DNA from: a virus
UHGV virus genome: UHGV-0271976
Direction: 5' to 3' (one strand)
Length of the DNA: 34,612 nt
The notes under the pieces are model-generated. The model did not search any database. It was not told where the DNA came from and saw nothing but the letters and a program-made list of their open reading frames with translations. Position numbers and translations under genes: made by a program. Shown piece after piece: positions 1 to 34,612 of this stretch (positions are counted from its first letter, which is position 1; each line of letters begins with the position of its first letter).

Positions 1-1
1 G

Positions 2-283
2 TCTTTCGCTCTGGGAGCGCCTCCCTCCAATGGAGAGGAATCGACTACCGTCGGACATGGCGGCGACAACAAGATTGAGGGGTATCTTCACTTCTGGTAT
101 CAGAACGACGTGGGTACTATCTATCTGGTCGGAACGGCGCATGGCGCCTTGCGCCTCCTGCAGGATCCCGAACACACCACGGCGATTGCTTCACCCCAGT
201 TCGAGTTCGAGATGGATTATCGCGGCAAGTACCAGTTCACGCCCTCCAATGTGCAGGACGAGACGCCGGCGCCGGGTTCCTGA
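2..283 (+). CDS. 3' end of an upstream structural (tail/baseplate-like) gene, 5'-truncated by the window edge
   Basis: Frame-2 reading is open from the window start to TGA at 281-283. It shows GC3-rich, protein-like sequence (...GHGGDNKIEGYLHFWYQNDVGTIYLVGTAHGALRLL...). The ORF-track entry 30..356 in another frame looks spurious. Confidence 0.35.
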   Translation, partial: SFALGAPPSNGEESTTVGHGGDNKIEGYLHFWYQNDVGTIYLVGTAHGALRLLQDPEHTTAIASPQFEFEMDYRGKYQFTPSNVQDETPAPGS

Positions 284-330: not shown

Positions 331-390
331 CTCAGGCAGCAGGCAGGCACATATGATATACGGACAGTCACAGGGCTCAACCAGTCCCTC

Positions 391-1968
391 GTGATCCGTA
401 TTCTGGACTTCCATGGCGACCCAGTTGATATGACAGGGGTGACGCTTCGGGGGGCTATCCGTCTCAAAAGCGGCATCACGGAATTTGGATATTCCACGGA
501 TGATGACGGCAATGGCGTGATCTCCTGGGAATCTGTCCCTCCCGGCGCCTGGGCCTACGATGTTTTTATGGACAGAAATGGAGATGAATCTCCCCTTCTG
601 CGCGGATGTTTCGTTTCAGCCGGACGCGTGACTCCTGACTTGCCTGGCGAAAAACAAGCGATTGCCGGCGCCGTCATTGTCAATCTGCCCGATGGAAACG
701 GATGCGTCAACGTACTGTTGGGAGGAGACTCCTCTGCCGCCTATTACGCGGAGCAGGCCAAAGAGGCCAGCAACGAAGCTCAACAGTCCAAGGAAGACAG
801 CCAGAAGGCGGCGGAAAACGCCGGCCAATCCGCAGAATCCGCAGAAGATGCTGCCAAACGGGCCGAAGACGTTCTTGCTGCTATGCCTGAAATAGATGCC
901 GAGGGCAATATGACCCTCCAGGGCAATCTGGCGGCCAAAGGAGCTGTGTTTACCGAGCTAGTTACATGCGGAAAAGGGCTTTCTCTTCCCGGCGGGGAGA
1001 GAATTACATTAAGTAATGGGGGAGCAACAATTTTCGCAAATGAAAACAACGCTACCATACACGTCCCCTCCCTTGCTTCTGCAGGAGAAATATCCGGCAA
1101 TGCCGTAAATTGTAACAGGGTTGCTGCTTCTACTTTATCCATCAGCACGGCGGCTACTTTTGGAGGCACGATTAACGCCAACGGGGGTGTCAATATTCCA
1201 GTAGTGCCATCCACTGACACGGAGGCGGCCAGATACAAGGAGGTACAACTACTCAATGAAATGGAGTTTTCTCCCTTGAGAACCTATTTCAGTTCTTCCA
1301 ATCCTTTTTCCTGGGGAATACTTGTAGACCGGTTTTGGTGGGCTGCCGGGCGAGACAACATGCCGGCATGGACTGTGGTCACGGCTGATTTTAATATGCT
1401 TAATCTCGACAATAACAATTCAGCTTACGACGGCTTGACCAGTTGTTATTTCCCAATGTCCTGCGGTCTGGGATATGGCCGGTGCTTTGATTCGATCGCC
1501 ATAGGCAATACTTATTTCAATACGGATTACGCGAGCCTGGATGATGATCCGTTTACCACGCCCGCAGGTTACATGCGGTACTGGATCGATATACAGATAG
1601 GCCGTCCGGCTAATGGCCAATGTGCCGTGTCTGTCCGCATGTCCCGGTGGGATAATGCGTCCAGTACTGCCGTCAATACCACCCACCAGTGTTCCGTGCC
1701 CGACAGCCTTGCCTTGCGGGGAGTGGCTTTGTCCATGACGAGTAAGCATTCCGGTGTCTGGCTGGTTGGGTTTGATAAAAGCGCCGGGCGTCTTGTTTCC
1801 TACAAGATTCTACCGGAGACATTTACGTTGGATTCTTATGCCAGAGCGATGTCCAGCAGGCTGTCACTGGCAAAGACGGCGGGACATTGTTCTGTCGGGG
1901 TGCATGCACCCAATTATTATGGAGGAACTATCGTTGGTGAATGGTGCGAACTGATCCAGAGAAATTAA
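391..1968 (+). CDS. Tail fibre-like / receptor-binding protein
   Basis: This 525-aa protein has a GTG start. Its N-terminal region holds an Ala/Glu/Gln/Ser-rich coiled segment (AYYAEQAKEASNEAQQSKEDSQKAAENAGQSAESAEDAAKRAEDVL). A Gly/Asn/Thr-rich beta-rich region follows (TLQGNLAAKG...GGATIFANENNATIHV...), as is typical of phage fibres. It lies downstream of the tail gene end. Confidence 0.5.
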   Translation: MIRILDFHGDPVDMTGVTLRGAIRLKSGITEFGYSTDDDGNGVISWESVPPGAWAYDVFMDRNGDESPLLRGCFVSAGRVTPDLPGEKQAIAGAVIVNLPDGNGCVNVLLGGDSSAAYYAEQAKEASNEAQQSKEDSQKAAENAGQSAESAEDAAKRAEDVLAAMPEIDAEGNMTLQGNLAAKGAVFTELVTCGKGLSLPGGERITLSNGGATIFANENNATIHVPSLASAGEISGNAVNCNRVAASTLSISTAATFGGTINANGGVNIPVVPSTDTEAARYKEVQLLNEMEFSPLRTYFSSSNPFSWGILVDRFWWAAGRDNMPAWTVVTADFNMLNLDNNNSAYDGLTSCYFPMSCGLGYGRCFDSIAIGNTYFNTDYASLDDDPFTTPAGYMRYWIDIQIGRPANGQCAVSVRMSRWDNASSTAVNTTHQCSVPDSLALRGVALSMTSKHSGVWLVGFDKSAGRLVSYKILPETFTLDSYARAMSSRLSLAKTAGHCSVGVHAPNYYGGTIVGEWCELIQRN

Positions 1969-2862: not shown

Positions 2863-3114
2863 ATGTGTAAGCTCTCCGAAGTACCGGCCCGTTTCTTCGA
2901 CTTCGCCAAGGCTTTCCCCGCCTGGGCCTGCGTCATGCTCTCGCTGGCCATTTGCGGCGCTGCCTGCTGGTACATCGGGGACGTCATGGGTCACCACAAT
3001 GACCGCCTTTGTGATTTGATGACCATGCAGACACAAGTCCAGGTGGAGACCGCCAAGGCGATCCAACTGCTTGCCGTCCGAATCGAAAACATAGAAAAGA
3101 AACTGGAAAAGTGA
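2863..3114 (+). CDS. i-spanin-like (Rz-like) protein
   Basis: An N-terminal TM segment (AWACVMLSLAICGAACWYIG) is followed by a coiled-coil tail (QTQVQVETAKAIQLLAVRIENIEKKLEK). Its stop overlaps the start of the next small lipoprotein ORF. An alternative start lies at 2824. Confidence 0.35.
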   Translation: MCKLSEVPARFFDFAKAFPAWACVMLSLAICGAACWYIGDVMGHHNDRLCDLMTMQTQVQVETAKAIQLLAVRIENIEKKLEK

Positions 3115-3263
3115 ATAAGCTGCTGAATCCTTCCGTTCTTTTGCCGCTGATGGGGTGCGTGATGGCCGGCGTTTTTGCCGCTTGCGGAGACACGGCGGCG
3201 GGCATTGCCGCGTTCTGTTTCCCCATTGCGTGCCTTGTGATCCTCCGATGTGCGGAAAGCTGA
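3111..3263 (+). CDS. o-spanin-like (Rz1-like) small lipoprotein; not in the ORF track
   Basis: GTG at 3111-3113 overlaps the i-spanin TGA at 3112-3114. The 50-aa product is VNKLLNPSVLLPLMGCVMAGVFAACGDTAAGIAAFCFPIACLVILRCAES. It has a signal-like N-terminus, a lipobox-like LMGC or FAAC, and is Cys-rich. Confidence 0.3.
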   Translation: MNKLLNPSVLLPLMGCVMAGVFAACGDTAAGIAAFCFPIACLVILRCAES

Positions 3264-3334
3264 CCAACTGTAAAGTTTTTCTTACAAGTTCCACTATATT
3301 AACAATCAACCATTAAAGGAGAATAATCAGGAAA

Positions 3335-3859
3335 ATAGCTATTGATATAGGCCATGCCAACAACACCGGGGCCCGCGGGAACGGGCTTGAAGAACACGCC
3401 GTCGCGGCGACGATCGCCGAACGCCTCGCCCCCATGCTGGAACGGCTGGGAGCCCGGGTGGATGTGATCGACTTCCCGAAGATGACCAATTCCCAGGACT
3501 TGAACGCCACCGTCAAGGCCGCCAACGAAGGCGGCTATGACTTCGGAATTTCATTGCATTGCGATTCGTCCGACAATCCCCAGGCTCATGGCGCTCATGT
3601 ATGTTTCTACCCGGGAAGCGTCAAAGGAAGCCGGTTGGCCATATGCATCGCGGAACCTCTTGCCTGGCTGCTGCCCGGACGGGCCAACACCGTGCAGTCG
3701 CGTCCGGGACTGGCCGTCCTGAAAAAGACCCGCTGTCCGTGGGTGCTGTGCGAATGTGGATTCATCACCAATCCTGAAAACGCCTCTATTTTGAAGGACC
3801 ATCCAGGACGCGTTGCCGAAGCCATTGCGGAAGGGGTGAAGGACTATATCAACCAGTAA
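3335..3859 (+). CDS. N-acetylmuramoyl-L-alanine amidase (Amidase_3 family endolysin); start codon uncertain
   Basis: In-frame translation from 3317 gives ...KIAIDIGHANNTGARGNGLEEHAVAATIAERL...ISLHCDSSDN...CECGFITNPEN. This matches the Amidase_3 zinc-ligand motifs. The first ATG (3434) lies downstream of the catalytic His, so a non-canonical start (ATA 3335, ATC 3326 or ATT 3341) is required. An AAAGGAG SD-like sequence sits at 3314-3320. Confidence 0.75.
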   Translation: MAIDIGHANNTGARGNGLEEHAVAATIAERLAPMLERLGARVDVIDFPKMTNSQDLNATVKAANEGGYDFGISLHCDSSDNPQAHGAHVCFYPGSVKGSRLAICIAEPLAWLLPGRANTVQSRPGLAVLKKTRCPWVLCECGFITNPENASILKDHPGRVAEAIAEGVKDYINQ

Positions 3860-8098: not shown

Positions 8099-8149
8099 AC
8101 AACTAACCATTTTACAAGCAGCAGGAACCACGACATCACCATCAATGAC

Positions 8150-10294
8150 TTGCTGGCCCTCAAGCCGTCGAGCCTGACCCACGACCAGCAAAGCTTTTCC
8201 GCCTCCGCCATCACCGCGGTTTATCCCGTCCGCACCTTGGACGAGGTCTTGCCCTTCCAACAGTTCGATACTGTCACCATTTCCCAAAACGGGAACACCA
8301 TTCTATCCGGCCTCGTTTCCAGCATCGAAAAGACCTACAGCGGCTCTTCCCGTGCGTGGAAAATCGTCTTTTCCGATCCTTGGTATTGGCTGGACCATTG
8401 CTTTGCGCTGGATAACGACTGGAAGCCGGTCTTTTCCATGTGGAATAAAGTCAGCGGCGGGGGCGCCATCATTCCGAAGATAAGCATTTCCGCCGCGCTC
8501 TCCCGGGTGCTGAATCTCGCCAAGCACCACCCGGCGGACTACGAGCTGCGCATCAGCGATGACAAGATGCTGATTCCGTGGAACGCCTCTTGTGATACGC
8601 TGGGCAGCCTTCTTCAATCCATCCGTCACTGGTCGCCCCGCATGGTTTCCTACTATGACTACAGCGGCGCGCGCCCCAAACTCATCATCACGGACTATGA
8701 CGCCCTGACGCCCATTTCGCTTCCCTTGCAGCCATCCGGCGAGATTAAAGCCATGGACGTTTCCCTGGTCCCACGCGGCGACCTCGTGCCTCCCTGCGTG
8801 GCGATTGTCGCGGAAACGACCGGCAGCAACGGCTACCGCGTCTCCTACCTGTCCAAATACCCGAAGGACGGGGACCCGACCCTGCCGCATTCCATCGTTT
8901 ACCGTACGTCAGTAGACTTCTACTACTCCAAATACAGTTCTACCGGGGAACCGGTAGAAGATCCGCAGCCGGTGCAGGGAACCAGGGCCGGCAGCCTGTC
9001 CTACCAGCGCATGAAAGTAAGGGGGCGGAAAATTAACCAGAACGACATGATCAAGAGTTTCTGGAAACATCATTTCCCGTGGATGAAAGACGTTGGCGCG
9101 ATTGCTGTCTATGACAAGGATCCGACCATCACCGGGAAGCCCTGGGACGGAACGGAGGAAGACAAGCCGCGAGGCTACAACACCGCCGCCACAGGCTATG
9201 AACTGACGGACGGGCAAATTCATACCAAATCCATCAGGCCGCAATGGTGCAACGCCACCGTCAAGCAGCGTCTCGCCATCCCGGAAAGAGCGCCTGCCAA
9301 GTGGAGGGAGAAATTCAAGAATGTGGGGACCCTGCAAGGCGTGCCCTGCTTCTGGGAAGAATTCTCGGTGGATCTGGTCACCATGGACCGCCCCTACGCG
9401 AGCTACCCCATTGACGGCATCTACAACGGGGAACAGCCCTCCAACGGCCCGGAAGAAGGGGAATCGCCGGAACCGTCGGAAGGAGTGCCCTATGGGGACA
9501 TTGCCAAAACGGTATGGGAATCCATGCAGGAATTGCCCTGGGACGGCTCTATTTCCTTTGTCGCGCTGGGAGAAGCGCAGACGCGGCAATACATGGGCCG
9601 GCGCGTCTCGCTGCTGGGAGGAAACCCCGCTTGGCAGAACATCAACACCATGATTCAGACGGTGAGCCGCGACCTGCAAACCAACGTGATTTCCCTTTCC
9701 TACGGCGCGCCGGAACAACTAGGGATTGAAGAATGGGTAGAATTGAAGCGCGTGAATGCCACCTCGCGCACATCTTCCACGCTGGAAAACATGCAGGGGG
9801 CGCCGGAATCGCCGGAATACGGCTTTGACCCCAAGCCGGAATCCCCCACCATCAGCCAGCACATCACCAAATCCACGGGAGAATCCACGCCCGCGCCGGA
9901 ATACGGCTTCCAGGTGCGCTTGCAGAAAGATACGGAGGGGGCCATCACCGGGGCGCAAATGAAGCCCGGCGCGCTCTACCTGAACGGCTCGCTGCTCGGC
10001 AAATACCCGCAGGGGGGCGGTTCCGGTTCTTCCTGGGTGACTATCCTCCAAACCAGCGGGGAAGTATGGCTCAACGTCCACTTCGACCAGGACGCCAAAC
10101 TGACGGGCGTTGATGTCTCGGGCATCCAGGGGACCGTCTATCCGATCATGCTCGGAGAGGAAAAGCCTGACGTCAATTTCGACTATTCTTTCCAGATAGC
10201 CTACATCGAAGATGATCAGGTGACGCAGTACGCGCTGGGAATGATCCAGATACCCGTCTTCGGAGGCACCTTCTACCCCTACGGACCAGCTTAA
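8150..10294 (+). CDS. Large tail-tip / host-specificity-like structural protein
   Basis: This 714-aa protein has a TTG start and lies downstream of the tape-measure-like gene. It carries internal PESPEYGF / PAPEYGF repeats. This is a size- and context-based call. Confidence 0.35.
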   Translation: MLALKPSSLTHDQQSFSASAITAVYPVRTLDEVLPFQQFDTVTISQNGNTILSGLVSSIEKTYSGSSRAWKIVFSDPWYWLDHCFALDNDWKPVFSMWNKVSGGGAIIPKISISAALSRVLNLAKHHPADYELRISDDKMLIPWNASCDTLGSLLQSIRHWSPRMVSYYDYSGARPKLIITDYDALTPISLPLQPSGEIKAMDVSLVPRGDLVPPCVAIVAETTGSNGYRVSYLSKYPKDGDPTLPHSIVYRTSVDFYYSKYSSTGEPVEDPQPVQGTRAGSLSYQRMKVRGRKINQNDMIKSFWKHHFPWMKDVGAIAVYDKDPTITGKPWDGTEEDKPRGYNTAATGYELTDGQIHTKSIRPQWCNATVKQRLAIPERAPAKWREKFKNVGTLQGVPCFWEEFSVDLVTMDRPYASYPIDGIYNGEQPSNGPEEGESPEPSEGVPYGDIAKTVWESMQELPWDGSISFVALGEAQTRQYMGRRVSLLGGNPAWQNINTMIQTVSRDLQTNVISLSYGAPEQLGIEEWVELKRVNATSRTSSTLENMQGAPESPEYGFDPKPESPTISQHITKSTGESTPAPEYGFQVRLQKDTEGAITGAQMKPGALYLNGSLLGKYPQGGGSGSSWVTILQTSGEVWLNVHFDQDAKLTGVDVSGIQGTVYPIMLGEEKPDVNFDYSFQIAYIEDDQVTQYALGMIQIPVFGGTFYPYGPA

Positions 10295-11095: not shown

Positions 11096-12283
11096 CTAAC
11101 GGGCCAGTCCGACGGCAATCTTGCTCATGGCCTCCTGAACGTCCGACGAATCCGGGCGGAAATACACCCGCTCAATCTCTTCGGAGTCGTGTCCGACGAT
11201 GAAGCGGCACAAATCCGGGGACACCCCGGCCAGGCGCAGGACGGTCACGGCGGTCGCCCGGAGGCTGTGGAAGCTCTTTTCCGAAAGCCGGTGCCGGTCG
11301 CCTCTCACCTCTCCGGGCATCTCTCGGATAATCCCGTACGTTTTCAACAATGTCGTGAACTCCGTGGAAAGCTTGTCGGAACGTCCGCCGGCATGGGCAT
11401 GGCGAAGCGCGGCCAGGGGAAACACGTAATCGTTCACCCGGTTGAGCAGACGCCTTTCCAGAACCTCTTTCAAGGGCTGGATGATCGGCTTGTTCATGCG
11501 GCGCCGGCTCTTCTGCGTGGTCATGAAGAGGAAGGAGTTCTTCAGGTCAATCTGGTCCCATTTCAGCGTCGCCAGGTCTCCGAGGCGCTGGCCTCCGGTG
11601 TAGAGGCACACCCGCACCAGATCCGGCCATTCATCCGGGAACCGTTCAATGATGGTGTTCACTTCCTCCATCGTGAACGCGCCGCGCAGCTGCTTTTCCG
11701 CCTGGTGGTCCGCCCGGGAAGGCATGACGCCCCGGAACGGATTCCGGGAAAGAATCTCCCGGTCTACAGCGACATTGAACGCGGTGGACAGCGTGGACAC
11801 ATAGCGGATGACGGTTCCGGCGGAAACGCGCTCCATTTCCGTTTCTACAAAATCCTTCGCCATCCCTTTATTCAGGGCGGCCAGCGGCATATTCCGCCGG
11901 TCCCCCAGGAACGCCAGAAGCCGGCGGACGGCCATGCCGTCCCGCTCATAGGCCCGCTTCTTGTTTTTCCTCCCGTCCAGCCAGTCAAAAAGAAACCGCG
12001 TCACCGTCATGCCGTTCATGGTGGCTTTCAGCACGCCGGCCTGGTCCCCGGCAATGGCCTTCACCTTGTCCAGGTCAAAAACCCCGTACCGGGCTTCCTT
12101 CTCCATCTCCTGGGCGACGAGCCGCGCCCGGGCTTCATTCTGGGACATAATTGATTTCTTATTGGATCCCGGAAGCAGCGCCTTGGGAACCACGTCGATG
12201 CCGGTTGTTTTCCGAAGCTCTTTGCCGTCCAGGGAGCGGAAGACGGCCACCCATTTGTTGTTGCGTTTGATGATGCCTGCCAT
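11096..12283 (-). CDS. int: Tyrosine integrase (phage integrase family)
   Basis: The 395-aa protein has a C-terminal catalytic region with ...FHSLRATAVTVL...IVGHDS...RVYFRP (H-x-x-R, GH and the nucleophile Tyr). An N-terminal SAM-like DNA-binding region is present. Confidence 0.9.
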   Translation of the reverse strand: MAGIIKRNNKWVAVFRSLDGKELRKTTGIDVVPKALLPGSNKKSIMSQNEARARLVAQEMEKEARYGVFDLDKVKAIAGDQAGVLKATMNGMTVTRFLFDWLDGRKNKKRAYERDGMAVRRLLAFLGDRRNMPLAALNKGMAKDFVETEMERVSAGTVIRYVSTLSTAFNVAVDREILSRNPFRGVMPSRADHQAEKQLRGAFTMEEVNTIIERFPDEWPDLVRVCLYTGGQRLGDLATLKWDQIDLKNSFLFMTTQKSRRRMNKPIIQPLKEVLERRLLNRVNDYVFPLAALRHAHAGGRSDKLSTEFTTLLKTYGIIREMPGEVRGDRHRLSEKSFHSLRATAVTVLRLAGVSPDLCRFIVGHDSEEIERVYFRPDSSDVQEAMSKIAVGLAR

Positions 12284-24113: not shown

Positions 24114-24794
24114 TCAGGACTTGATAAAATCACGCAGTCCGTAGTTAATAACGGCGATTCTAATAATCAGCCATTCCGCAATGGCGGTGGTGCTGTTGCC
24201 CTGACAAACCAGACGGAAGATTTTTCTGACAACCTCTGCGGCTGGCTCGTCCACGATGAGAGTCTGCTTATCGTCCGGCTTTCTCTTGTAACCATACGGG
24301 ATAGAGCCGCTGCATCGCATTCCGTCTTTCATTCTGGACTTGAAGATTGCCTTAATTTTGTTGCTGGTGTCCTTGGCGTACCATTCGTTCATGATGTTCA
24401 AGAACGGCGTGAAGTCATTGTCCTGCGGGGTAGCACTGTCCACATTGTTGTTGATGGCTATGAACCGAACGCCCTTTTTCGGGAAAAGGATTTCTGTGTA
24501 GTAGCCAACTTGCAGGTAGTTTCTACCAAAACGACTGAGATCCTTTACCACAAGGGTCTCCACTCGTCCGGCTTCGACTTCTTCCAGCAGGGCGGCAAAA
24601 CCGGGACGATTAAAGTTCGTACCGGAATAGCCGTCATCATAGAAGTGCCGGATATTTCTCAGCCCATGCTGACGGGCATATTCTTCAAGATATTTCTTTT
24701 GGTTCTGGATGGAGTTCGATTCTCCAGCCTGTTCATCATCTCTTGATAAACGCTCATACAGAGCTGTAATTTTGATTTCTTCTTTCTTTGCCAC
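24114..24794 (-). CDS. Serine recombinase, truncated (catalytic domain plus ~70 aa of the recombinase domain); probable gene remnant
   Basis: A GTG start with a strong Firmicutes-type SD (AAGGGAGGT, 7 nt upstream) opens the ORF. The catalytic domain runs ITALYERLSRDD...SIQNQ...YDDGYSGTNFNRPGF...VVKDLSRFGRNY (nucleophile Ser region). Similarity to large serine recombinases stops at ...TAIAEWL and a stop follows soon after. GC is ~45%. Confidence 0.7.
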   Translation of the reverse strand: MAKKEEIKITALYERLSRDDEQAGESNSIQNQKKYLEEYARQHGLRNIRHFYDDGYSGTNFNRPGFAALLEEVEAGRVETLVVKDLSRFGRNYLQVGYYTEILFPKKGVRFIAINNNVDSATPQDNDFTPFLNIMNEWYAKDTSNKIKAIFKSRMKDGMRCSGSIPYGYKRKPDDKQTLIVDEPAAEVVRKIFRLVCQGNSTTAIAEWLIIRIAVINYGLRDFIKS

Positions 24795-24945
24795 GGTTTT
24801 ACCTCCCTTCTTTATGTAATTAAGCAGGTAAACATCGGTCGTGCTTGTGAAACACACCCTTTGTCTATCTGCTTATAGTATAACCGTTCGGGGCTGTGGA
24901 TTAAAACGATCGCAAGATCATCCGGGCGGCAACGCCCACTTCCCT

Positions 24946-24984
24946 TAAAAAGGGGCGGTTTTTTCGAAGCCGCCCCTTTTTTTA
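24946..24984. terminator. Bidirectional rho-independent terminator
   Basis: AAAAA-GGGGCGG-loop-CCGCCCC-TTTTTTT. The stem spans 24952-24958/24970-24976 and has A/T runs on both sides. Confidence 0.55.
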
Positions 24985-25054
24985 TTCCGGGACGGATGGA
25001 GCCTCCAGGATCCGCCATCCGGCCCCCGTGCCGAATCAAGAACAAACAACGCGC

Positions 25055-25084
25055 TTGAATTGGATATCCGTTGCCTCCTATAAT
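25055..25084 (+). promoter_or_regulatory. Sigma70-like promoter for the packaging/late operon
   Basis: TTGAAT (25055-25060), an 18-nt spacer, then TATAAT (25079-25084). It sits immediately upstream of the terS leader. Confidence 0.4.
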
Positions 25085-25107
25085 AGAGCCGCAGGAAAAA
25101 TAAACCT

Positions 25108-25602
25108 ATTACCAAAAGAAAACCGGGGCGGCCGAGCCTCTACACCGAGGAACTCGCCGCCGAAATAGCCTCCCGTCTTGCCAACGGCGAAACCATGAAA
25201 TCCATCTGCTCCGATGACCACATGCCGGAGGTCTGGACGGTCTGGAACTGGCGTGAAACAAAGCCGGAGTTTTCCAAACTCATTCAACACGCACGGGAAG
25301 CGCAGTCGGAAGCTATGATTGACGCCTGCCAGGAGCTGGCCGACGAAGCCGCGAAAGTCGCCCTTGACCCGGAATGCGGCTCCGCCTCCGTCGCCGCGAA
25401 GAAGCTCGCCATTGAAACCCGGCTGAAAGTCGCCGCCCGCTTCGCTCCTGATAAATTCGGAGACCGGGTCCGTCAGGACGTCGCCGGCGTTCCCGGAGCG
25501 CCGCTGGAACGGAAAATCACGCTGGACCCTGAGCAGCTCGCCCAGCTGCAGGAAGACGAGAAAACCGCGCTGGAAACCATCGCCGGCAAACTCCATCCCT
25601 AA
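25108..25602 (+). CDS. terS: Terminase small subunit; probable ATT start
   Basis: Translation in the frame open from 25087 gives TKRKPGRPSLYTEELAAEIASRLANGETMKSICSDDHMPEVWTVWNWRETKPEFSKLIQHAREAQSEAMIDACQELADEA. This is a conserved TerS N-terminus (GRPs.YtpEla..I...La.GesL..IC...). The first ATG is 25195, inside the conserved block. No in-frame ATG/GTG/TTG lies upstream after the tandem TAA TAG stops. Confidence 0.65.
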   Translation: MTKRKPGRPSLYTEELAAEIASRLANGETMKSICSDDHMPEVWTVWNWRETKPEFSKLIQHAREAQSEAMIDACQELADEAAKVALDPECGSASVAAKKLAIETRLKVAARFAPDKFGDRVRQDVAGVPGAPLERKITLDPEQLAQLQEDEKTALETIAGKLHP

Positions 25603-25635
25603 CCCGTCAGGACACGAATCCCCGTCAGCTTCTTC

Positions 25636-26982
25636 TTGCGCCATATCCTCCGCCTTGACCCCTATCCATGGCAGGTGGAGTCCATCAAGGCGTTGTCCCT
25701 GGGTAAGCTGACCCTGGGAGGGAAAAGCGTGGCTCTGGTCGCTCCTAACGGATCCGGCAAGACAAGCAACTGCATCGCTCCCGCCATCCTGTACTTTCTC
25801 ACCTGTTTTCCGCGGGGACAGGTCCCCGTTACGTCCTCATCGTGGATGCAGGTGGAAAAGCAGCTCTTTCCCGCGCTCCGCCGCTACATGGACAATCCTT
25901 TCTTTTCCGGCTGGACCTTCAACAAGACGGAGATCCGCACGCCGGAGGGAGGCTTTGCCGTGGGTTTCTCCACCGACAACGCGGGACGTGCGGAAGGATG
26001 GCATCCAAAAATCTCGCCCGACGTGGATCCTGTCTTTTACGTCCTGGACGAGGCCAAAACCATTCCGGACTCCATCTTCACCGCCGTTTCCCGCTGCACG
26101 CTCTTTCACGCGTTCATCACCTCGTCGCCGGGCGCCGATTCCGGCACCTTCTACGACTGCTTTCACAAAAATTCATCGCTCTACTACAAAATCCGCGTCA
26201 AATACGAGGATTGCCCGCACATTGAAATCAACGACCCGGGCAAGGCCGAACGCCTGAAAAAAGAATATGGTGAGCAGTCCTCCTTCTACCGCTCGGCCAT
26301 CCTTGGTGAATTCACCGACCTTGACGGACAATCCGTCATTTCCCGCCGCGCTCTCATGGAGCTGGTCAACAACCCGCCTCCCTTCCTGGACACCGGAGAG
26401 ACCTGCGGCGGCTTCGACTTTGCCGCGGGAGGCGATGAAAACGTCTTTGCGGCCGGGCAGGGCAACCGTTTTTTCATCGCCGACCACTGGTCCGACCCGG
26501 ACACCGTAGGAGCGCGCGGACGTTTCCGCCGGAAGGCCGCCGAACTCGGCATCTCTGCCGACCGCATCTTTGCCGACGGCGACGGCCTAGGGCTCCCCAT
26601 CATTGATGACTTCCGCGCCGAGGGCTTTCCGGTGCACTCCTACCGCGGCGGGTTTCCGGCGGATGACACACAAGCCTTTGTCAATCTGCGAGCCCAGGCA
26701 TGGCGGGCTCTCGCCCGCGCCATCGAAGAAAAAGAACTCATCCTCGACATTGACGAGGATACGATTGAGCAGCTGGTTGCTCCACGACTCCAAACCGACG
26801 CAATAGGCCGCGTCCGCATTGAAAGCAAAGAAGATATGGCAAAGCGGGGCGTTCGTTCCCCAGACCGGGCCGACGCCCTTGTGATGGCCTGGCACGCGCG
26901 CCGGAACAGCGGACTGGCGCGGACGCTGGGAGCCTGGTACGCCCGTCCCGTGTCATCAAAACGCGCTTACGGGAGATATTAG
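25636..26982 (+). CDS. terL: Terminase large subunit
   Basis: TTG start. Walker A-like VAPNGSGKTS is followed by an acidic ATPase core. The C-terminal nuclease-like region ends ...DRADALVMAWHA. It is in the same frame as terS, separated by a single TAA. Confidence 0.7.
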   Translation: MRHILRLDPYPWQVESIKALSLGKLTLGGKSVALVAPNGSGKTSNCIAPAILYFLTCFPRGQVPVTSSSWMQVEKQLFPALRRYMDNPFFSGWTFNKTEIRTPEGGFAVGFSTDNAGRAEGWHPKISPDVDPVFYVLDEAKTIPDSIFTAVSRCTLFHAFITSSPGADSGTFYDCFHKNSSLYYKIRVKYEDCPHIEINDPGKAERLKKEYGEQSSFYRSAILGEFTDLDGQSVISRRALMELVNNPPPFLDTGETCGGFDFAAGGDENVFAAGQGNRFFIADHWSDPDTVGARGRFRRKAAELGISADRIFADGDGLGLPIIDDFRAEGFPVHSYRGGFPADDTQAFVNLRAQAWRALARAIEEKELILDIDEDTIEQLVAPRLQTDAIGRVRIESKEDMAKRGVRSPDRADALVMAWHARRNSGLARTLGAWYARPVSSKRAYGRY

Positions 26983-27035
26983 GGTTGACAACATATCAAG
27001 ATATCAATACATGACGATATGTAAGCAATCGCAGG

Positions 27036-28484
27036 GTGGTGAAACGGTATCACGCGGGGTTCCTGTCCCCGAATCGAAGGTCCAACTCCTTCCCCTGCAA
27101 CCACCTTTTCTTTAGCCTCAGGTTTAACGCCGTCAAAAATATCCTCAACGCCCCGAAGCTGGTAGCCCAACAGGAGACCAGAATCAAGGAGCTTGAAACG
27201 GACCTGGCCCGGCGAGCGTTGACGGAACAGAGCCGGAAGCCTAACCAGCCTCAATGGTACGAATATTGGGACCCGTTACAGGGCGCCGACCTGCAAACCC
27301 TGATTGACGCCCGGAACGAAGCGCGGCGTGGAGCCTTTGCCCGCCAAATGCTCATTTGGGACGAGGTCATCTACTCGGACGGCTTGATGGGCATGCTCTA
27401 TTCCCGGCTCATTGAAAGCGTCTCCATGCAGGGATGGAAGATTGACGCCGCGGACGACAGCCCGGAAGCCCAGCGTCAGCAGAACGCGCTGGAAGAATTC
27501 TATCACTCCGTCACCGGACTTCAACAGGCCTTTGGGCAGTTGGCCTCCGCTATGTTTTACGGGTACGCCCACCTCCAATACATCGAAGATTCCTGGGGCC
27601 GCCGCTTTGAATTCATCCCGCAGCGATACTGGGTGCGGCCCGGAGAGCTGAACGAATGGCAGTTTAATCCCCAGTGCTACATCGGGGTCGACACGGGCGA
27701 GAGCGTAGAGGAAGAAACGCTCGTGGTCATGGAGCACCGGAACCCCATTCTTTTTCCGGCAACCCGCGCCTCTTTTGAGCGGAATCACGCCAAAGTTACG
27801 TGGGACAACCATATGGACCGCTACGGGAGCGCCCCGGTCATCATCACGGCGCCCAAGGACGCGAGCGCCGCCGTCATGGACGCGCTGGAACGGGCCTGTG
27901 AGGAACTCAAATCGGGAGCCTCCATTGTGCTTCCTCCCGGCTGCACCGCCGAACCGTTGAAAGCCTCCAACATCAACGAAAACTATTTCCTATCCCGAAT
28001 CAACATGTCCGACAAGGACCAGGTGCGGTTTGTAATGGCCGGCACTCTGACCGTCCTGAATGAATCAGGATCCGGCACGCTGGCCGGGGGAGCGCACACG
28101 GATAGCTGGAATTCGGTCGTCTCCGCGGTCTGTTCCAAGGTCGCCGAAGCTTTTAACGCCGCCATCAGCCCGCTTGTCCTGGGAGACGGCGAACCGCTGG
28201 CCCGCCTCCACATCACTTTTGACACCGTCCAGACCCCGCTGCAGAAAGCCGAGGAAATCGCCGCGCTTGCCGACGGAGGCGTCCGCCCCGAGAAGACCGA
28301 GATTGAAGAAAAGATCGGCATGTCGATCGAGGACACGCAGGACCCCGTTCCGGTGACGGCGGCGGCCAACAGGGAACCGGAAAAAGCACTCATTCCGCCC
28401 GATGCTTATGAACAGCTTCAGCAAATGATTTACGCCGGACTCATGAAAGGATTTACCGATGATCAGCACGAAACAAATCAATGA
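27036..28484 (+). CDS. Portal protein (Mu gp29-like)
   Basis: The 482-aa protein sits directly after terL and before the gpI-like protease. The first ~45 aa (GTG start) look non-protein-like, so the true start may be downstream. Confidence 0.55.
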   Translation: MVKRYHAGFLSPNRRSNSFPCNHLFFSLRFNAVKNILNAPKLVAQQETRIKELETDLARRALTEQSRKPNQPQWYEYWDPLQGADLQTLIDARNEARRGAFARQMLIWDEVIYSDGLMGMLYSRLIESVSMQGWKIDAADDSPEAQRQQNALEEFYHSVTGLQQAFGQLASAMFYGYAHLQYIEDSWGRRFEFIPQRYWVRPGELNEWQFNPQCYIGVDTGESVEEETLVVMEHRNPILFPATRASFERNHAKVTWDNHMDRYGSAPVIITAPKDASAAVMDALERACEELKSGASIVLPPGCTAEPLKASNINENYFLSRINMSDKDQVRFVMAGTLTVLNESGSGTLAGGAHTDSWNSVVSAVCSKVAEAFNAAISPLVLGDGEPLARLHITFDTVQTPLQKAEEIAALADGGVRPEKTEIEEKIGMSIEDTQDPVPVTAAANREPEKALIPPDAYEQLQQMIYAGLMKGFTDDQHETNQ

Positions 28485-29571
28485 CCTGTCCCGACCCGCC
28501 AACGGCTGGTTCCACGTTGAGAAAAGCGGAGACCATGACGTTGACTACGGCGAGGGTCCCGCCGTGTTGCGCATCGACGAGCAGGCGATCCGGGACATGG
28601 TGGACGACTTCAACGCCCGCACCTTTGACGGCCCGGGCATGCTCATCGACGGCGACCACCTGAGCCACGACCTTTCCCGCGATACTCGGGCCCTCGGATG
28701 GCTCAAGAGGCTGGACACCTACCGCGACCCTTCCGGCACGCTGGAACTCTACGGGTTCATCGAATGGACGCCGCGCGGCCTGAAGATGCTGCAGGACAAG
28801 GAATACACGCAATCATCCACCGAATATGGCGAAGGCATGACTTTGACGGACGGCGTCTACCGCCCGTCGCGTCTGACCGGCTTCGCTCTGACCAACCGGC
28901 CGCGCATCAAGGGAAAGCGGCCTCTGGTCAACCGACAGACTTCCCCCGCCTCCGACGAGGCCGGGGGCGACCCCAAAAGCCCCGAAGAGGGGGAAACAAC
29001 CCAGAAAACCAATATGGAAAACGACGATAGAGAATATCCGTCCAAGGAGATGGACAAGGCCCAGCGGGCCCTGTTCGACTCCCTGCTTGACAAGCTGGAT
29101 GTCGAATTTGACGGCACCGACGACATGAGCAGGGCGATCCTCGGACGCCTTGATGAACTGCTCTCGCTGGAAAAGCGTGAGAAAGACCACGTGAACGCCG
29201 AAGTGGACGACGCCGTCAGCACGTACGAAAACGCGCTGGACGAGGAAGAACGCGAGGAATTCACGGAAGAACGCCGGGAAGAGCTGAAAAACTCTCTCCG
29301 GGAAAGCCCCGCCGCGCTGAACGCTTTTATCCGTGCGCTCAACCGCCAGACTCCGCCCAAAAAACCGGATCAGGAGGAAAAGAAGGAACTGCCGAAAAGG
29401 ACGCCTCTGAACCGCCGCGCGACGCTGAATCCCCCTGACCCATTCCGCAAGAAGGAATCCATTGACGGATTCAACAACCGCGTCAACGAACTGATCAAGG
29501 ACGGCATGAAGCGCTATGACGCCTACCAGAAAGCGACCGAAGAAGGCTTCATCGTCTCCGCCAACCGATAA
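28459..29571 (+). CDS. Prohead protease fused to a scaffold-like C-terminus (Mu gpI-like)
   Basis: ...LIDGDHLSHD...LGWLKRLDTYRDPSGTLELYGFIEWTPRGLKML..EYTQSSTEY.. fits the Mu gpI family pattern (IDYEHQ...GWI...dGLwa.veWT...EYRYiSP). The C-terminal half is highly charged and scaffold-like (EEREEFTEERREELKN). Confidence 0.6.
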   Translation: MISTKQINDLSRPANGWFHVEKSGDHDVDYGEGPAVLRIDEQAIRDMVDDFNARTFDGPGMLIDGDHLSHDLSRDTRALGWLKRLDTYRDPSGTLELYGFIEWTPRGLKMLQDKEYTQSSTEYGEGMTLTDGVYRPSRLTGFALTNRPRIKGKRPLVNRQTSPASDEAGGDPKSPEEGETTQKTNMENDDREYPSKEMDKAQRALFDSLLDKLDVEFDGTDDMSRAILGRLDELLSLEKREKDHVNAEVDDAVSTYENALDEEEREEFTEERREELKNSLRESPAALNAFIRALNRQTPPKKPDQEEKKELPKRTPLNRRATLNPPDPFRKKESIDGFNNRVNELIKDGMKRYDAYQKATEEGFIVSANR

Positions 29572-29589
29572 CTTAACCCATATCAACCA

Positions 29590-30021
29590 ATGCCATCACT
29601 CAACGTAACCCAGAAAAGCGCCATCGTCTATTTCAACGCCCCTGAAAGCGTTGACCTGTGCGGACAGGAAGGAACCGTCGTGGCGCTGACCGCCAATCCT
29701 GACATCCCCGAATTTGTCGGAACTCCGTTGTCCGCCATCCCCACGCAGACGCAGCTGCTCGGCGTCGTCCTGCAGGGACAGCCCAACAAGGGAACCTGCG
29801 TCGCCGCGCTCGTCGGAATGTATGCCGGCCTGATCAAGGCGGCTCTATCCGACACGCCCGGAACCATCAACGCCGGAACGCCCGTCACCATCACGGCCAA
29901 CGGGACATGGAAGGCCGCCGCCAGCGGCGACACCGTCTATGCCCGCGTTATTCATGCCCAGTGGGAACAGGGCCTTGTGGAAATCGGCTTCGTTCCGTCC
30001 TACCAGGTCGCCGTAGCCTAA
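29590..30021 (+). CDS. Small head protein (DUF2190-like decoration/scaffold?)
   Basis: The 143-aa ORF lies between the protease/scaffold and the capsid gene. The call rests on context only. Confidence 0.35.
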   Translation: MPSLNVTQKSAIVYFNAPESVDLCGQEGTVVALTANPDIPEFVGTPLSAIPTQTQLLGVVLQGQPNKGTCVAALVGMYAGLIKAALSDTPGTINAGTPVTITANGTWKAAASGDTVYARVIHAQWEQGLVEIGFVPSYQVAVA

Positions 30022-30241
30022 CTATTAACCCCAACCAACAGAAAGACCAAGAACAAGGGCTACTCCATTTTGCTCCGCCGTTCAGTTCACCGATGTCCTG
30101 ACCTCCTATTCCGCGGGGTCCGGGAACACCGAAGAGAACTCCATCATCAGCCGCATCGCTCCGATCGTCCCGGTCTATGACCTGAATTTCCAGTACAAGG
30201 TCTGGGACACGGAATCGGCCTTCACCGTCCAGCCCATCCAG

Positions 30242-30982
30242 GTGGGGCCGGGCGAACCTCCCCGCCAGACCGTCCTGCGCGGAAGAAACGAAACCGACAC
30301 CCTTCAGGGCTACGGCTTGACGCTGCCCATCCCTGACGCCTTGCTGGGCGTCAACCGGGAAAAGGCGCAGGCCATCACCCTGGCGGAATACAAACTCATC
30401 GAATCGCAGTTCGTCACTTCGTACGAATACGAACGCGCCAAGCTTCTGATGAGCCAGCTTCCGGCCGCTTCCGGCATGGGTGACTGGGCCAACCAGCAGA
30501 AAAACCCGTTGGCGGACCTGGACAAGGCAATCCTGTCCATCAATGCCGCAACCGGACACATGCCGAACACGATTGTCTTCGGCATCAACGCATGGCAGCT
30601 GCTTCGCTCCAACACGCTCGCGCGTCAGGTGGTTTCCTTCAACAGCGTCGGCCTGTTCAACGAAGACCTTCTTCGCATGGCTCTGATCCGTCCTATCCGG
30701 GATATTTACATCGCGTCCATGCCGTACCGCGACGCTTCCGGCGACGCGAAAACCATCATGGAAAACGAAGTCTATGTCCTGTACAAGGAAGACTCCCCGA
30801 CGCAGTTCGACGCCTCCGCCGTCAAGACCTTCGGTCTTTCCGGCAAGCTTCGCCGAGAAGTCATTACCGAATACAAGCCGACGCCGGCCTTGACGCTCGT
30901 CACAAACCGCGTCTACTCGCTGACCAAGTTGACGAACCCCAGCGCCATCGTCCGCATCGACGCGACGGCCACCGGCGATTAA
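30242..30982 (+). CDS. Major capsid protein (Mu gpT-like), minimal ORF from GTG; coding clearly extends upstream
   Basis: It follows the protease/scaffold. GC3-rich, protein-like sequence in the same frame continues upstream to ~30090-30143 (SYSAGSGNTEENSIISRIAPIVPVYDLNFQYKVWDTESAF) with no in-frame ATG/GTG/TTG. An ATG at 30093 sits one base out of frame. Confidence 0.5.
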   Translation: MGPGEPPRQTVLRGRNETDTLQGYGLTLPIPDALLGVNREKAQAITLAEYKLIESQFVTSYEYERAKLLMSQLPAASGMGDWANQQKNPLADLDKAILSINAATGHMPNTIVFGINAWQLLRSNTLARQVVSFNSVGLFNEDLLRMALIRPIRDIYIASMPYRDASGDAKTIMENEVYVLYKEDSPTQFDASAVKTFGLSGKLRREVITEYKPTPALTLVTNRVYSLTKLTNPSAIVRIDATATGD

Positions 30983-31002: not shown

Positions 31003-31479
31003 ATGTCCGCCTTTCCTGCCTGGTCCACGATTTCCACCGACGAAGCCGATCGGCTGCTCGGTCTCAACACCGCCGAACGCGATGCCCTGGTAACAGCCGG
31101 GGAACAGCGCAGCCTGGACTACCGGGATGTCATGATGGAGGCGGTCAACGATGTCTGCATGACCATCCGCGGGGCGCTGGCCAACAACCTCGCCCTGCGG
31201 CAATCGCTCCAGAACAGCGGCATGTACGACATTCCGCAAAGCATGCGGTCCCTGGCATGGCCGCTGATCATCCGGCAGCTCTACCTGCGCTACCAGCTCA
31301 ACCTGACCGATACGCGCCAGAAAGCCGCCGAATCGGCCGACGCGATGCTGGCTCTCTATGCCCGGGGCGACATGCTGCCCGAAAGCGTGGAGGGATCCGC
31401 TCCTGCGGACCCCGCCTACATGATGCCGCGCTACACGCGCCGGCCCTGGTTCAACCCGATGCGAAGCACCTACCGATGA
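31003..31479 (+). CDS. Hypothetical head-completion / structural protein
   Basis: The 158-aa ORF has an ATG start, lies after the capsid gene, and its stop overlaps the next gene's start (ATGA). Confidence 0.3.
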   Translation: MSAFPAWSTISTDEADRLLGLNTAERDALVTAGEQRSLDYRDVMMEAVNDVCMTIRGALANNLALRQSLQNSGMYDIPQSMRSLAWPLIIRQLYLRYQLNLTDTRQKAAESADAMLALYARGDMLPESVEGSAPADPAYMMPRYTRRPWFNPMRSTYR

Positions 31480-34232: not shown

Positions 34233-34612
34233 ATTTCCAGCACCAGGGCTACTACATACGATCCCACATTCACAAACCGCAATGTTACGCCGCAGATTAC
34301 CGGCGTTCTGGCGATTTTCCTCCCCGACGGCATCAAGGTGACCGAAGACGGGGGAGTTTCCTACGTCACCGGGCCGGACCAGTTTCCGACGCCTCCCACG
34401 GCTCCGCCCGCCGATCCGACAGCCGGGCCTGAACAGCCCTGGGTGAGTTTCGGGCTTTTGGGGGCTTTCCAATCCGTCGCAACCCAGGTCGAAGGAGAAG
34501 TGACGCGCTTTTACGGCGGCGCGCTGGGCTACCGCCAGCAGCGCAAGAACACGACGACCGGCAAGCGGATGACCTTCACCACGCCGGACATGTCCCCCGA
34601 ATGGTTCCAGCT
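34233..34612 (+). CDS. Structural protein, 3'-truncated by the window edge; start codon unclear (ATT?)
   Basis: Frame-0 reading is open from 34194 to the window end with GC3-rich, protein-like sequence (...ITGVLAIFLPDGIKVTEDGGVSYVTGPDQFPTPP...FYGGALGYRQQRKNTTTGKRMTFTTPDMSPEWFQ). It is not in the ORF track, because there is no stop in the window and no canonical start near the 5' end. Confidence 0.3.
   Translation, partial: MSSTRATTYDPTFTNRNVTPQITGVLAIFLPDGIKVTEDGGVSYVTGPDQFPTPPTAPPADPTAGPEQPWVSFGLLGAFQSVATQVEGEVTRFYGGALGYRQQRKNTTTGKRMTFTTPDMSPEWFQ

Follow-up and report, generated by a model that had tools for sequence, protein, structure and literature searches.

The identity of the start codon is usually treated as fixed, consisting of AUG and its near-cognates and served by a single initiator tRNA. 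In bacteria, a mismatch at position 1:72 of the initiator permits formylation and excludes EF-Tu, and G:C pairs in its anticodon stem permit selection in the ribosomal P site. A change in the initiator's anticodon redirects initiation to the complementary codon, and initiator tRNAs engineered to have altered anticodons are reportedly found in the work of RajBhandary and Schulman. Here we describe what may be a natural counterpart. The window analyzed, UHGV-0271976 (34,612 nt), contains the whole genome of a temperate phage of Akkermansia muciniphila in circularly permuted form. Its endolysin gene and several other late genes very probably start with AGG, and the phage encodes a tRNA with the anticodon CCU that probably acts as the initiator for them.

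The closest described systems are man-made. Engineered initiator tRNAs (i-tRNAs) with CCU, CUA or other anticodons have been combined with complementary non-AUG start codons (PMC11744186), and engineered i-tRNA-CCU together with an AGG start outdid all other pairs in each E. coli strain tested, with inductions of 35- to 402-fold (bioRxiv 10.64898/2026.04.16.719103, Jaschke lab); the amino acid on that tRNA was left open in the same work. AGG is nearly silent in the engineered i-tRNA-CCU system without the tRNA. In wild-type E. coli, AGG alone is a poor start that is suppressed by initiation factor 3 (IF3; PMC6868393), codons outside the near-cognate set initiate at approximately 0.01-1% of AUG (bioRxiv 10.1101/063800), and at the first two codon positions IF3 tolerates nothing but Watson-Crick pairing (PMC10158994). 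The window follows the same logic as the engineered systems and has the same CCU/AGG pair, with an initiator scaffold and with AGG behind a normal ribosome-binding context. It differs from them in that: (i) engineered i-tRNAs are man-made point mutants of the host tRNA-fMet, whereas the window tRNA occurs naturally in a phage genome and has diverged (a manual count gives ~69% identity with E. coli tRNA-fMet, and the D loop is shorter, with U11:A24 and G37 elsewhere in the molecule); and (ii) unlike the engineered pairs, it is kept in many phage genomes and would serve seven or eight genes essential for virions and lysis.

Several natural systems also bear comparison. In stop-codon recoding gut phages (crAss-like, Lak and other phages; PMC10879173, PMC11210395), a phage tRNA likewise alters the meaning of a codon, the late genes are phage-decoded and gene callers are broken; in-frame stops are concentrated in the late genes and are read by phage suppressor tRNAs. 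That recoding, however, concerns elongation and termination and uses an elongator-type suppressor, whereas here a sense codon would be turned to initiation by an initiator-type tRNA, with internal decoding unchanged. The AUU start of infC and the GTC start of sigR, both under IF3 control (PMC5472188), are also non-canonical starts that serve as a regulatory device at initiation, but they belong to single regulatory genes read at a low, IF3-tuned level by the near-cognate tRNA-fMet(CAU). The window phage would instead use a dedicated cognate tRNA, for genes that include those of its most abundant virion proteins. Phage tRNA-fMet species with a CAU anticodon are also phage-borne and of initiator type, but they keep AUG decoding, whereas the window tRNA has CCU and its cognate AGG stands at gene starts. 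In the full-text literature (open-access papers and preprints) we found neither a natural initiator tRNA with a non-CAU anticodon nor AGG start codons in phages. A natural pair of AGG start and CCU initiator, if we read the sequences correctly, appears to be new, such pairs having been built so far only by engineers.

Results

The phage genome

The window shares 87% identity with Akkermansia phage DTMo-2021a. It is a complete circular permutation because the open reading frame (ORF) at 34245-34612 runs in frame into positions 1-283, with its homologue matched throughout. The same element has been deposited as a circular 32.8-kb "plasmid", pJ30893 (NZ_AP021899.1), despite a tyrosine integrase gene at 11096-12283 on the minus strand.

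The start of the endolysin gene

The endolysin frame opens after an in-frame TAA at 3314-3316 and continues as AGG AGA ATA ATC AGG AAA ATA GCT ATT GAT ATA GGC CAT, i.e., RRIIRKIAIDIGH. The first in-frame ATG, at 3434, is codon 40 after the stop, and across 3317-3337 there is no ATG, GTG or TTG in any frame; the in-frame AUA, AUC and AUU codons (AUH) of the leader are ATA (3323, 3335), ATC (3326) and ATT (3341). A preliminary description of the window, made from the sequence alone, had reported this stop, this ATG, the lack of a canonical start before the conserved block and these AUH codons, and was accurate on all of them. It had placed the block at 3338-3400 and the AAAGGAG motif at 3314-3320; the IAIDIGH...EEH block actually lies at 3335-3397 and the motif at 3315-3321.

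Profile comparison places the catalytic domain 5' of the first ATG. Against the stop-to-stop frame, Pfam Amidase_3 (PF01520) gave E = 3.7e-29 and 102.4 bits (gathering cut-off 27), with profile positions 1-173 of 174 aligned to residues 7-175 and position 1 falling on ATA 3335. The domain is present at full length, N-terminal GH block included, and begins 33 codons 5' of the ATG. The endolysin has relatives of known structure (PDB 3qay, 5emi and 7tj4), and solved amidase domains such as that of 3qay, when aligned from their N-terminal ends, begin at this point too. For codons 2-35 of AGG-type endolysins, pS is 0.24, pN is 0.03 and their ratio, nonsynonymous to synonymous differences (pN/pS), is 0.125; the rest of the gene gives 0.22 and ATG-type genes give 0.13-0.16, so that codons 2-35 are equally constrained. 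Only intact genes of equal length entered this calculation, with frameshifted and insertion-bearing variants left out. Because these codons are under purifying selection, we conclude that the N-terminus is translated.

Alignment with relatives points to one codon as the start. DTMo-2021a has ...AAAGGAGAATACTCATGAAAATAGCC... where the window has ...AAAGGAGAATAATCAGGAAAATAGCT..., and the ATG of the relative is opposite AGG 3329-3331, with an identical SD and a 7-nt spacer before each. The preliminary description had raised the possibility that ATA or ATT would lie opposite the ATG of homologues, and had taken ATA 3335 for a natural Amidase_3 start. It is instead AGG 3329, a codon not considered there, that aligns, and ATA 3335 corresponds to Ile3 of the ATG-type homologues. 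In the 52 IMG/VR loci that encode the endolysin, the start column is AGG in ~21 and ATG in the remainder. The AGG-type loci have two different upstream contexts, AATAATCAGG and AATACCCAGG, the second of which (type-B lineage) has CCC in place of the window's ATC 3326. The Shine-Dalgarno (SD) motif AAAGGAG is kept in both ATG-type and AGG-type relatives, in a few loci as AAAAGAG. Because ~21 independent IMG/VR loci show the same state, the ATG-less endolysin is attributable neither to chance nor to assembly error. We found no evidence of read-through of TAA 3314, frameshifting, RNA editing or introns.

Two kinds of endolysin variant were also seen among the relatives. One locus (L031, 3001-3495) has an AGG-type gene with a 1-nt deletion in codon 8 that shifts the frame, either an assembly error or a genuine pseudogene. 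Others (P0004, P0009, P0048 and P0050, from L004, L005, L009, L010 and L024-L026) have an insertion of ~17 residues after the HCDS motif; the insertion-bearing protein is 193 aa long (158 aa when mis-called) and occurs with both ATG-type and AGG-type genes.

AGG at the starts of other late genes

The preliminary description had suggested that the start-less small terminase subunit (TerS), capsid and last partial structural gene might share the endolysin's explanation, and this proved well founded, since all of them have predicted AGG starts. The complete set is given in Table 1. In each gene an in-frame AGG stands a few codons after the upstream stop. At the sites with locus counts this AGG does not vary among the relatives, although the sequence around it has diverged and in places taken up indels. 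The open frames that match PHROG families extend over 25603-26982 (large terminase subunit, TerL), 27105-28484 (portal), 28447-29571 (protease/scaffold) and 30029-30982 (major head protein).

Individual genes add detail. The first ATG of TerS (25195) falls 3' of its conserved GRPSLYTEEL N-terminus. In the capsid frame, the PHROG 1005 match runs from residue 21 and the first canonical start, GTG 30242, comes only at codon 71; between the stop and the region of homology there is no ATG, GTG, TTG or AUH codon. TerL has a weaker alternative start in TTG 25636, the portal AGG sits 17 nt after the tRNA gene, and the gene at 334 has GTG 391 as its first canonical in-frame start and has AGG in pJ30893 as well. 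For the gene at 8123, AGG is kept in DTMo-2021a and pJ30893, but only these two relatives cover the site, so the support is weaker.

Table 1. Coordinates of the proposed AGG-start genes, the tRNA and associated elements in the window. Loci are those of relatives aligned at the start site and contexts are distinct surrounding sequences; some contigs are represented by more than one locus, and the number of contexts is the safer count.
Feature	Position	Strand	Evidence
SD-like AAAGGAG	3315..3321	+	Read directly; GGAG core ends 7 nt before AGG 3329
Predicted endolysin AGG start codon	3329..3331	+	Column match with ATG of DTMo-2021a and ~11 other close relatives; L236 residue 1 projects here
Endolysin, N-acetylmuramoyl-L-alanine amidase, 176 codons	3329..3859	+	Pfam Amidase_3 full profile; PDB relatives; pN/pS
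TerS, predicted AGG start	25093..25602	+	Upstream in-frame stop TAG 25084-25086; AGG in 47/47 loci, 15 contexts
TerL, predicted AGG start	25609..26982	+	PHROG 2; AGG in 56/56 loci, 15 contexts, flanking codons vary
tRNA, anticodon CCU, initiator-type features	27030..27103	+	ARAGORN; Rfam tRNA 52.7 bits
Portal protein (Mu-like, DUF935), predicted AGG start	27120..28484	+	PHROG 113; AGG in 62/62 loci, 20 contexts, upstream indels
Major head protein, predicted AGG start	30056..30982	+	PHROG 1005; AGG in 56/56 loci, 8 contexts
Tail-region structural gene, predicted AGG start	34245..34612, continuing into 1-283	+	AGG invariant, 7 contexts
Large tail-region protein, predicted AGG start	334..1968	+	AGG in 8/8 loci, 4 contexts, despite indels in upstream T-run
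~720-aa protein, probable AGG start	8123..10294	+	First candidate, 8 codons after stop; TTG 8150 alternative
Promoter-like TTGAAT-18-TATAAT, putative function	25055..25084	+	Ends 8 nt before TerS AGG

Genes that start with ATG are interleaved among these late genes: ATG is found in 61/61 loci (16 contexts) for the protease at 28459, in 59/59 (16) for the gene at 29590 and in 53/53 (9) for that at 31003. As a control, the holin-like gene at 3111 was seen to have either GTG or ATG as its start among relatives, an ordinary start-codon toggle. A scan of the window for an SD, a spacer, AGG and a long ORF recovered the endolysin only, because most genes of the phage are without an SD. The remaining AGG starts were identified by homology and comparison, and the genes at 31-34 kb by projection from a more distant syntenic relative, L236, spurious long frames overlapping the real genes in that region. 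AGG 2758, which served as the second control, was considered as a start and rejected; it toggles with AAG inside a conserved coding sequence, like an ordinary Arg/Lys codon.

A phage tRNA with the complementary anticodon

ARAGORN found one tRNA in the window, labelled tRNA-Arg, whose anticodon CCU is the complement of AGG; in the Rfam match its first base pair is marked as non-standard. The tRNA is not mentioned in the preliminary description, and it turns a one-gene oddity into a genome-wide system. Read by hand it is 5'-C GCAGGG UG GUGA AACGGUA UCAC G CGGGG UUCCUGU CCCCG AAUC GAAGG UCCAACU CCUUC CCCUGC A A CCA, with a C1·A72 mismatch, G2:C71, C3:G70, G29-31:C39-41, A73 and an encoded CCA. 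Six of the seven acceptor-stem positions are the same as in E. coli tRNA-fMet, the reference having been verified against 5,426 genomes (100% match to annotated tRNA-Met genes, median 4 copies per genome).

The tRNA gene lies just 5' of the portal gene in all 46 portal-bearing close relatives, whose copies comprise 16 sequence variants. All 16 show the C1·A72 mismatch, as does the diverged copy of L360, a third lineage. In every variant the 20 helical pairs are all standard. Compensatory double changes are seen at 8 of these pairs, and the observed values are reached in 0/500 shuffles. Because every variant keeps C·A while all other pairs stay paired, the mismatch is maintained by selection. 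The determinants for formyltransferase are also kept: G2:C71 in 15/16 variants (G·U in one), C3:G70 in 16/16, and A73 and CCA without variation. Three G:C pairs (29:41, 30:40, 31:39) occur in the window tRNA, in 12/16 variants and in L360. The anticodon is CCU in every copy, not the CAU of the tRNA-fMet class, and C35 and U36 are as in elongator tRNA-Arg(CCU).

Viral-contig tRNAs with canonical initiator acceptor ends have the anticodon CAU in 109/110 cases among the matches listed. Judged by this comparison, the initiator acceptor scaffold is a mark of initiators, and a non-CAU anticodon on it is exceptional. A 17-nt anticodon-arm scan of genome contigs (596 Gb) returned 120 matches in unrelated GC-rich genomes, with ~70 expected by chance and 0/60 of those checked lying in a tRNA.

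One viral-contig tRNA with canonical initiator acceptor ends (L269, 404-480; CGCGGGG...CCCCGCAACCA) was assigned the anticodon ACT by ARAGORN, and its anticodon stem is not rich in G:C. This may be another type of initiator-like tRNA with a non-CAU anticodon, or else a mis-fold.

The base at -1 of AGG is C in 7/8 AGG-start genes (25092, 25608, 27119, 34244, 333, 8122, 3328) versus 5/11 ATG-start genes. A fourth pair between C(-1) and G37 (CAGG with CCUG; tRNA position 37 = 27065) was considered and rejected, as these proportions do not differ significantly and L360 combines U37 with A(-1).

Relatives with and without the tRNA

Every relative with AGG starts has the tRNA, namely the 46 close relatives, pJ30893 and L360. 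In pJ30893, a finished circular replicon of A. muciniphila JCM 30893, the tRNA is found with AGG at seven late genes and ATG at the endolysin. In contrast, L236 and L237, which are syntenic and more distant (portal 60% identical), have canonical starts throughout and the tRNA is absent. When the L236 proteins are projected onto the window, their first residue falls exactly on AGG in the case of the portal, the capsid, the endolysin and the genes at 34245 and 334. In the protease gene and those at 29590, 31003, 31476 and 32603 it falls on ATG. At the projected position of the capsid start, L236 has ATG and reads MPNNFCTAVQFTDVL, against AGG and then ·ATPFCSAVQFTDVL in the window. The homologue of the 34245 gene likewise has ATG there (MATTLSPDY versus ·ATTYDPTF), the tblastn match crossing the end-to-start junction.

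Other relatives show mixed states. The codon at the portal start is TTG in L236, ATG in L238 and AGG in L360, although L238 has the tRNA. L360 (portal 63% identical) combines AGG at the portal with ATG at TerL, and its tRNA has diverged but retains CCU, A73, C1·A72 and all three G:C pairs; in both L236 and L360 the ATG of TerL lies within 1-2 codons of AGG 25609.

Internal AGG codons

Of the internal codons in confidently assigned genes, 0.6% are AGG. Within the five best-supported AGG-start genes it accounts for 1/1,559 internal codons, versus 38/4,897 elsewhere (Fisher's exact p = 4.9e-4). Because AGG is rare internally and near-absent from the AGG-start genes, codon supply does not call for the tRNA. 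One possible cause of the depletion is that initiation within genes is avoided.

Discussion

On the comparative evidence, AGG is at the start position and interchangeable there with ATG, the tRNA has initiator features and is under selection, and the tRNA and AGG starts co-occur. Our confidence is therefore high that the endolysin and the other late genes start with AGG, and we consider it likely that tRNA(CCU) acts as their initiator. The phage would then have two classes of start: most genes would use ATG (or GTG, TTG), and seven or eight key late genes would use AGG. The predicted AGG class contains TerS, TerL, the portal, the major capsid protein, two tail genes, probably the gene at 8123 and, in the window lineage, the endolysin.

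In the mechanism that we propose, the initiator-type phage tRNA, having CCU and not CAU, would read AGG in the ribosomal P site. C1·A72, G2:C71, C3:G70 and A73 would allow formylation and binding of initiation factor 2 and would keep the tRNA off EF-Tu, and the G:C pairs in the anticodon stem would provide for acceptance by the P site and IF3. With full Watson-Crick pairing, CCU:AGG would pass the IF3 proofreading that rejects the host tRNA-fMet on AGG. Translation of packaging, head, tail and sometimes lysis proteins would thus depend on the phage's own tRNA, and such an orthogonal initiation channel could form a translational gate on the lytic programme. We infer both the role of the tRNA in initiation and its formylation from the features of its sequence; the idea of a gate is conjecture. 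Arginine would be the simplest, though uncertain, guess for the amino acid that the tRNA carries, from C35 and U36 as read by arginyl-tRNA synthetase (ArgRS), but position 20 is U.

An extended form of this proposal can be put forward only tentatively. It is that natural orthogonal initiation exists in a family of Akkermansia phages, which would have reassigned AGG as a private start codon through a CCU initiator tRNA; virion and lysis proteins would start with a residue other than Met, most simply formyl-arginine, and the whole would act as a translational lock.

Several observations weigh against an initiator role for the tRNA and its link to the AGG starts. The contrast with tRNA-less phages comes from a single lineage and two contigs (L236, L237), and the tRNA is also present in phages with an ATG endolysin, so that for the endolysin taken alone the correlation does not discriminate. 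Within the tRNA, 4/16 variants have only two G:C pairs by the anticodon loop (two with A29:U41 and two with U31·G39), although certain natural initiators are known to deviate similarly in the anticodon stem. In the D stem, 16/16 variants have U11:A24 in place of the A11:U24 typical of bacterial initiators, and most variants have C55 in the T loop. The tRNA gene is located 3' of TerS and TerL, which would need its product, and no clean promoter was found for it, TTGACA at 26975 being without an acceptable -10 and not called by the promoter scan.

Phage tRNAs are commonly explained by codon supply. The strongest alternative, which we nevertheless consider improbable, is that tRNA(CCU) is an ordinary elongator tRNA-Arg for a rare codon, and that the host tRNA-fMet reads AGG by near-cognate mispairing to give deliberately low expression. 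The ARAGORN label and the elongator-like U11:A24 agree with the first part of this explanation. However, elongator tRNAs need a paired 1:72 for EF-Tu, and the Watson-Crick pair of elongator tRNA-Arg(CCU) at that position is replaced by C·A in all copies, L360 included, while all other pairs are kept by compensation. A20 in the D loop is an ArgRS identity element in E. coli and A37 is expected for codons that start with A; the D loop of the phage tRNA, AACGGUA, puts U at position 20 in our numbering, and position 37 of the tRNA is G (A in one variant group, U in L360), G37 being unusual for a codon starting with A. The scarcity of internal AGG, above all in the AGG-start genes, leaves little to supply. 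As to mispairing, weak initiation does occur from many codons in E. coli (bioRxiv 10.1101/063800), but synthesis of capsid, portal and terminases at 0.01-1% of AUG efficiency is implausible, AGG starts are suppressed by IF3 (PMC6868393), and the tRNA-less relative has ATG or TTG at the AGG sites.

A second alternative is that the endolysin starts at a nearby AUH codon (ATA 3335, ATA 3323, ATC 3326 or ATT 3341, the candidates of the preliminary description), and the other start-less genes likewise, with AGG being only a conserved element of the leader. AUA, AUC and AUU are recognized weak starts, at 0.1-3% of AUG (bioRxiv 10.1101/063800), and ATA 3335 and ATT 3341 are kept in the endolysin family. 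These two codons are kept equally in ATG-type genes, however, as Ile3 and Ile5; of the other two, ATC 3326 is CCC in the type-B lineage and ATA 3323 is only 1 nt from the SD. The capsid leader offers no AUH codon before the region of homology, and in the endolysin, portal, capsid, 34245 and 334 genes it is AGG, not AUH, that the ATG of relatives replaces. Initiation at AUH codons is accordingly very unlikely.

Slighter still is the chance that the tRNA is an integration-site remnant (attP/attB) or a hitch-hiker unrelated to the AGG starts, with initiator features that are coincidental. Temperate phages often integrate into tRNA genes, and the window encodes a tyrosine integrase. The tRNA, however, is full length with an encoded CCA, lies ~15 kb from the integrase with TerL on one side and the portal on the other, is kept in the circular episomal form, evolves by compensatory change and co-occurs with AGG starts across three lineages. 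Finally, of the two explanations offered in the preliminary description, non-AUG initiation stands, and a defect (sequencing or assembly error, or decay of late genes in a domesticated or defective prophage) is scarcely credible, for although one endolysin is frameshifted (L031) and gene callers yield truncated proteins, identical AGG codons occur in dozens of independent assemblies of varied samples and technologies, including pJ30893 and DTMo-2021a, AGG at the endolysin recurs in two upstream contexts, the ORFs are intact, pN/pS 5' of the first endolysin ATG is as low as given above, and AGG is invariant where neutral decay would scatter substitutions.

AGG initiation by the phage tRNA, if true, would have several implications. 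On the extended form of the proposal, lytic and packaging genes would be untranslatable until the phage tRNA was expressed, a lock that would keep the episomal or lysogenic state silent and time the late proteins, and the late genes would be useless to hosts, satellites or rival phages that are without the tRNA. The phage would in this way gate its most dangerous genes (terminase, capsid, endolysin) by translation. A second natural initiator tRNA with another anticodon would be a new class of genetic-code variation, situated at initiation instead of at stop codons. For synthetic biology, it would offer an i-tRNA(CCU)/AGG pair already shaped by evolution, the combination that engineers had independently identified as the best performer. 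The host is a cultured gut bacterium of high health interest, and the element is available in strains JCM 30893 (pJ30893) and NBRC 114322 (DTMo-2021a). The case also suggests a principle by which to search for others: tRNAs with a 1:72 mismatch and a non-CAU anticodon, whose cognate codon is enriched at gene starts.

AGG starts would also explain a systematic mis-annotation of the late genes of this phage family. Protein databases contain many endolysin calls of 141 and 158 aa that start at an internal Met, with some clusters of ~100 members and hundreds of 141-aa entries. The RefSeq gene table of pJ30893 (L239, 22092-28067) lists no TerS coding sequence and calls the capsid at 278 aa versus ~308. 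Portal calls in the AGG-start family either run back through the tRNA or are truncated (clusters P0010, P0018, P0021 and P0121-P0156 are among those mis-annotated).

Other features of the flanking regions

The promoter-like element 5' of TerS is the only sigma-70-like site in 24700-27200, which is no more than chance expectation; diverged relatives have a -10-like hexamer (TATGAT, TAGAGT) at the same distance from the TerS AGG. The spacing suggests that the TerS mRNA may be leaderless or nearly so, starting at AGG. In the region 5' of the tRNA (26975-27029), TTGACA lies 50 nt from the gene and is followed by short inverted repeats (ACATATC ... GATATGT).

An AT-rich intergenic stretch 5' of the endolysin SD (3264-3328) contains an imperfect palindrome, TGTAAAG-TTTTT-CTTACA, that is near-invariant in all close relatives and could be a regulatory site, promoter or terminator for the lysis genes. 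Directly 5' of the endolysin there is a small hydrophobic holin-like ORF (3111-3263), which in the window starts with GTG.

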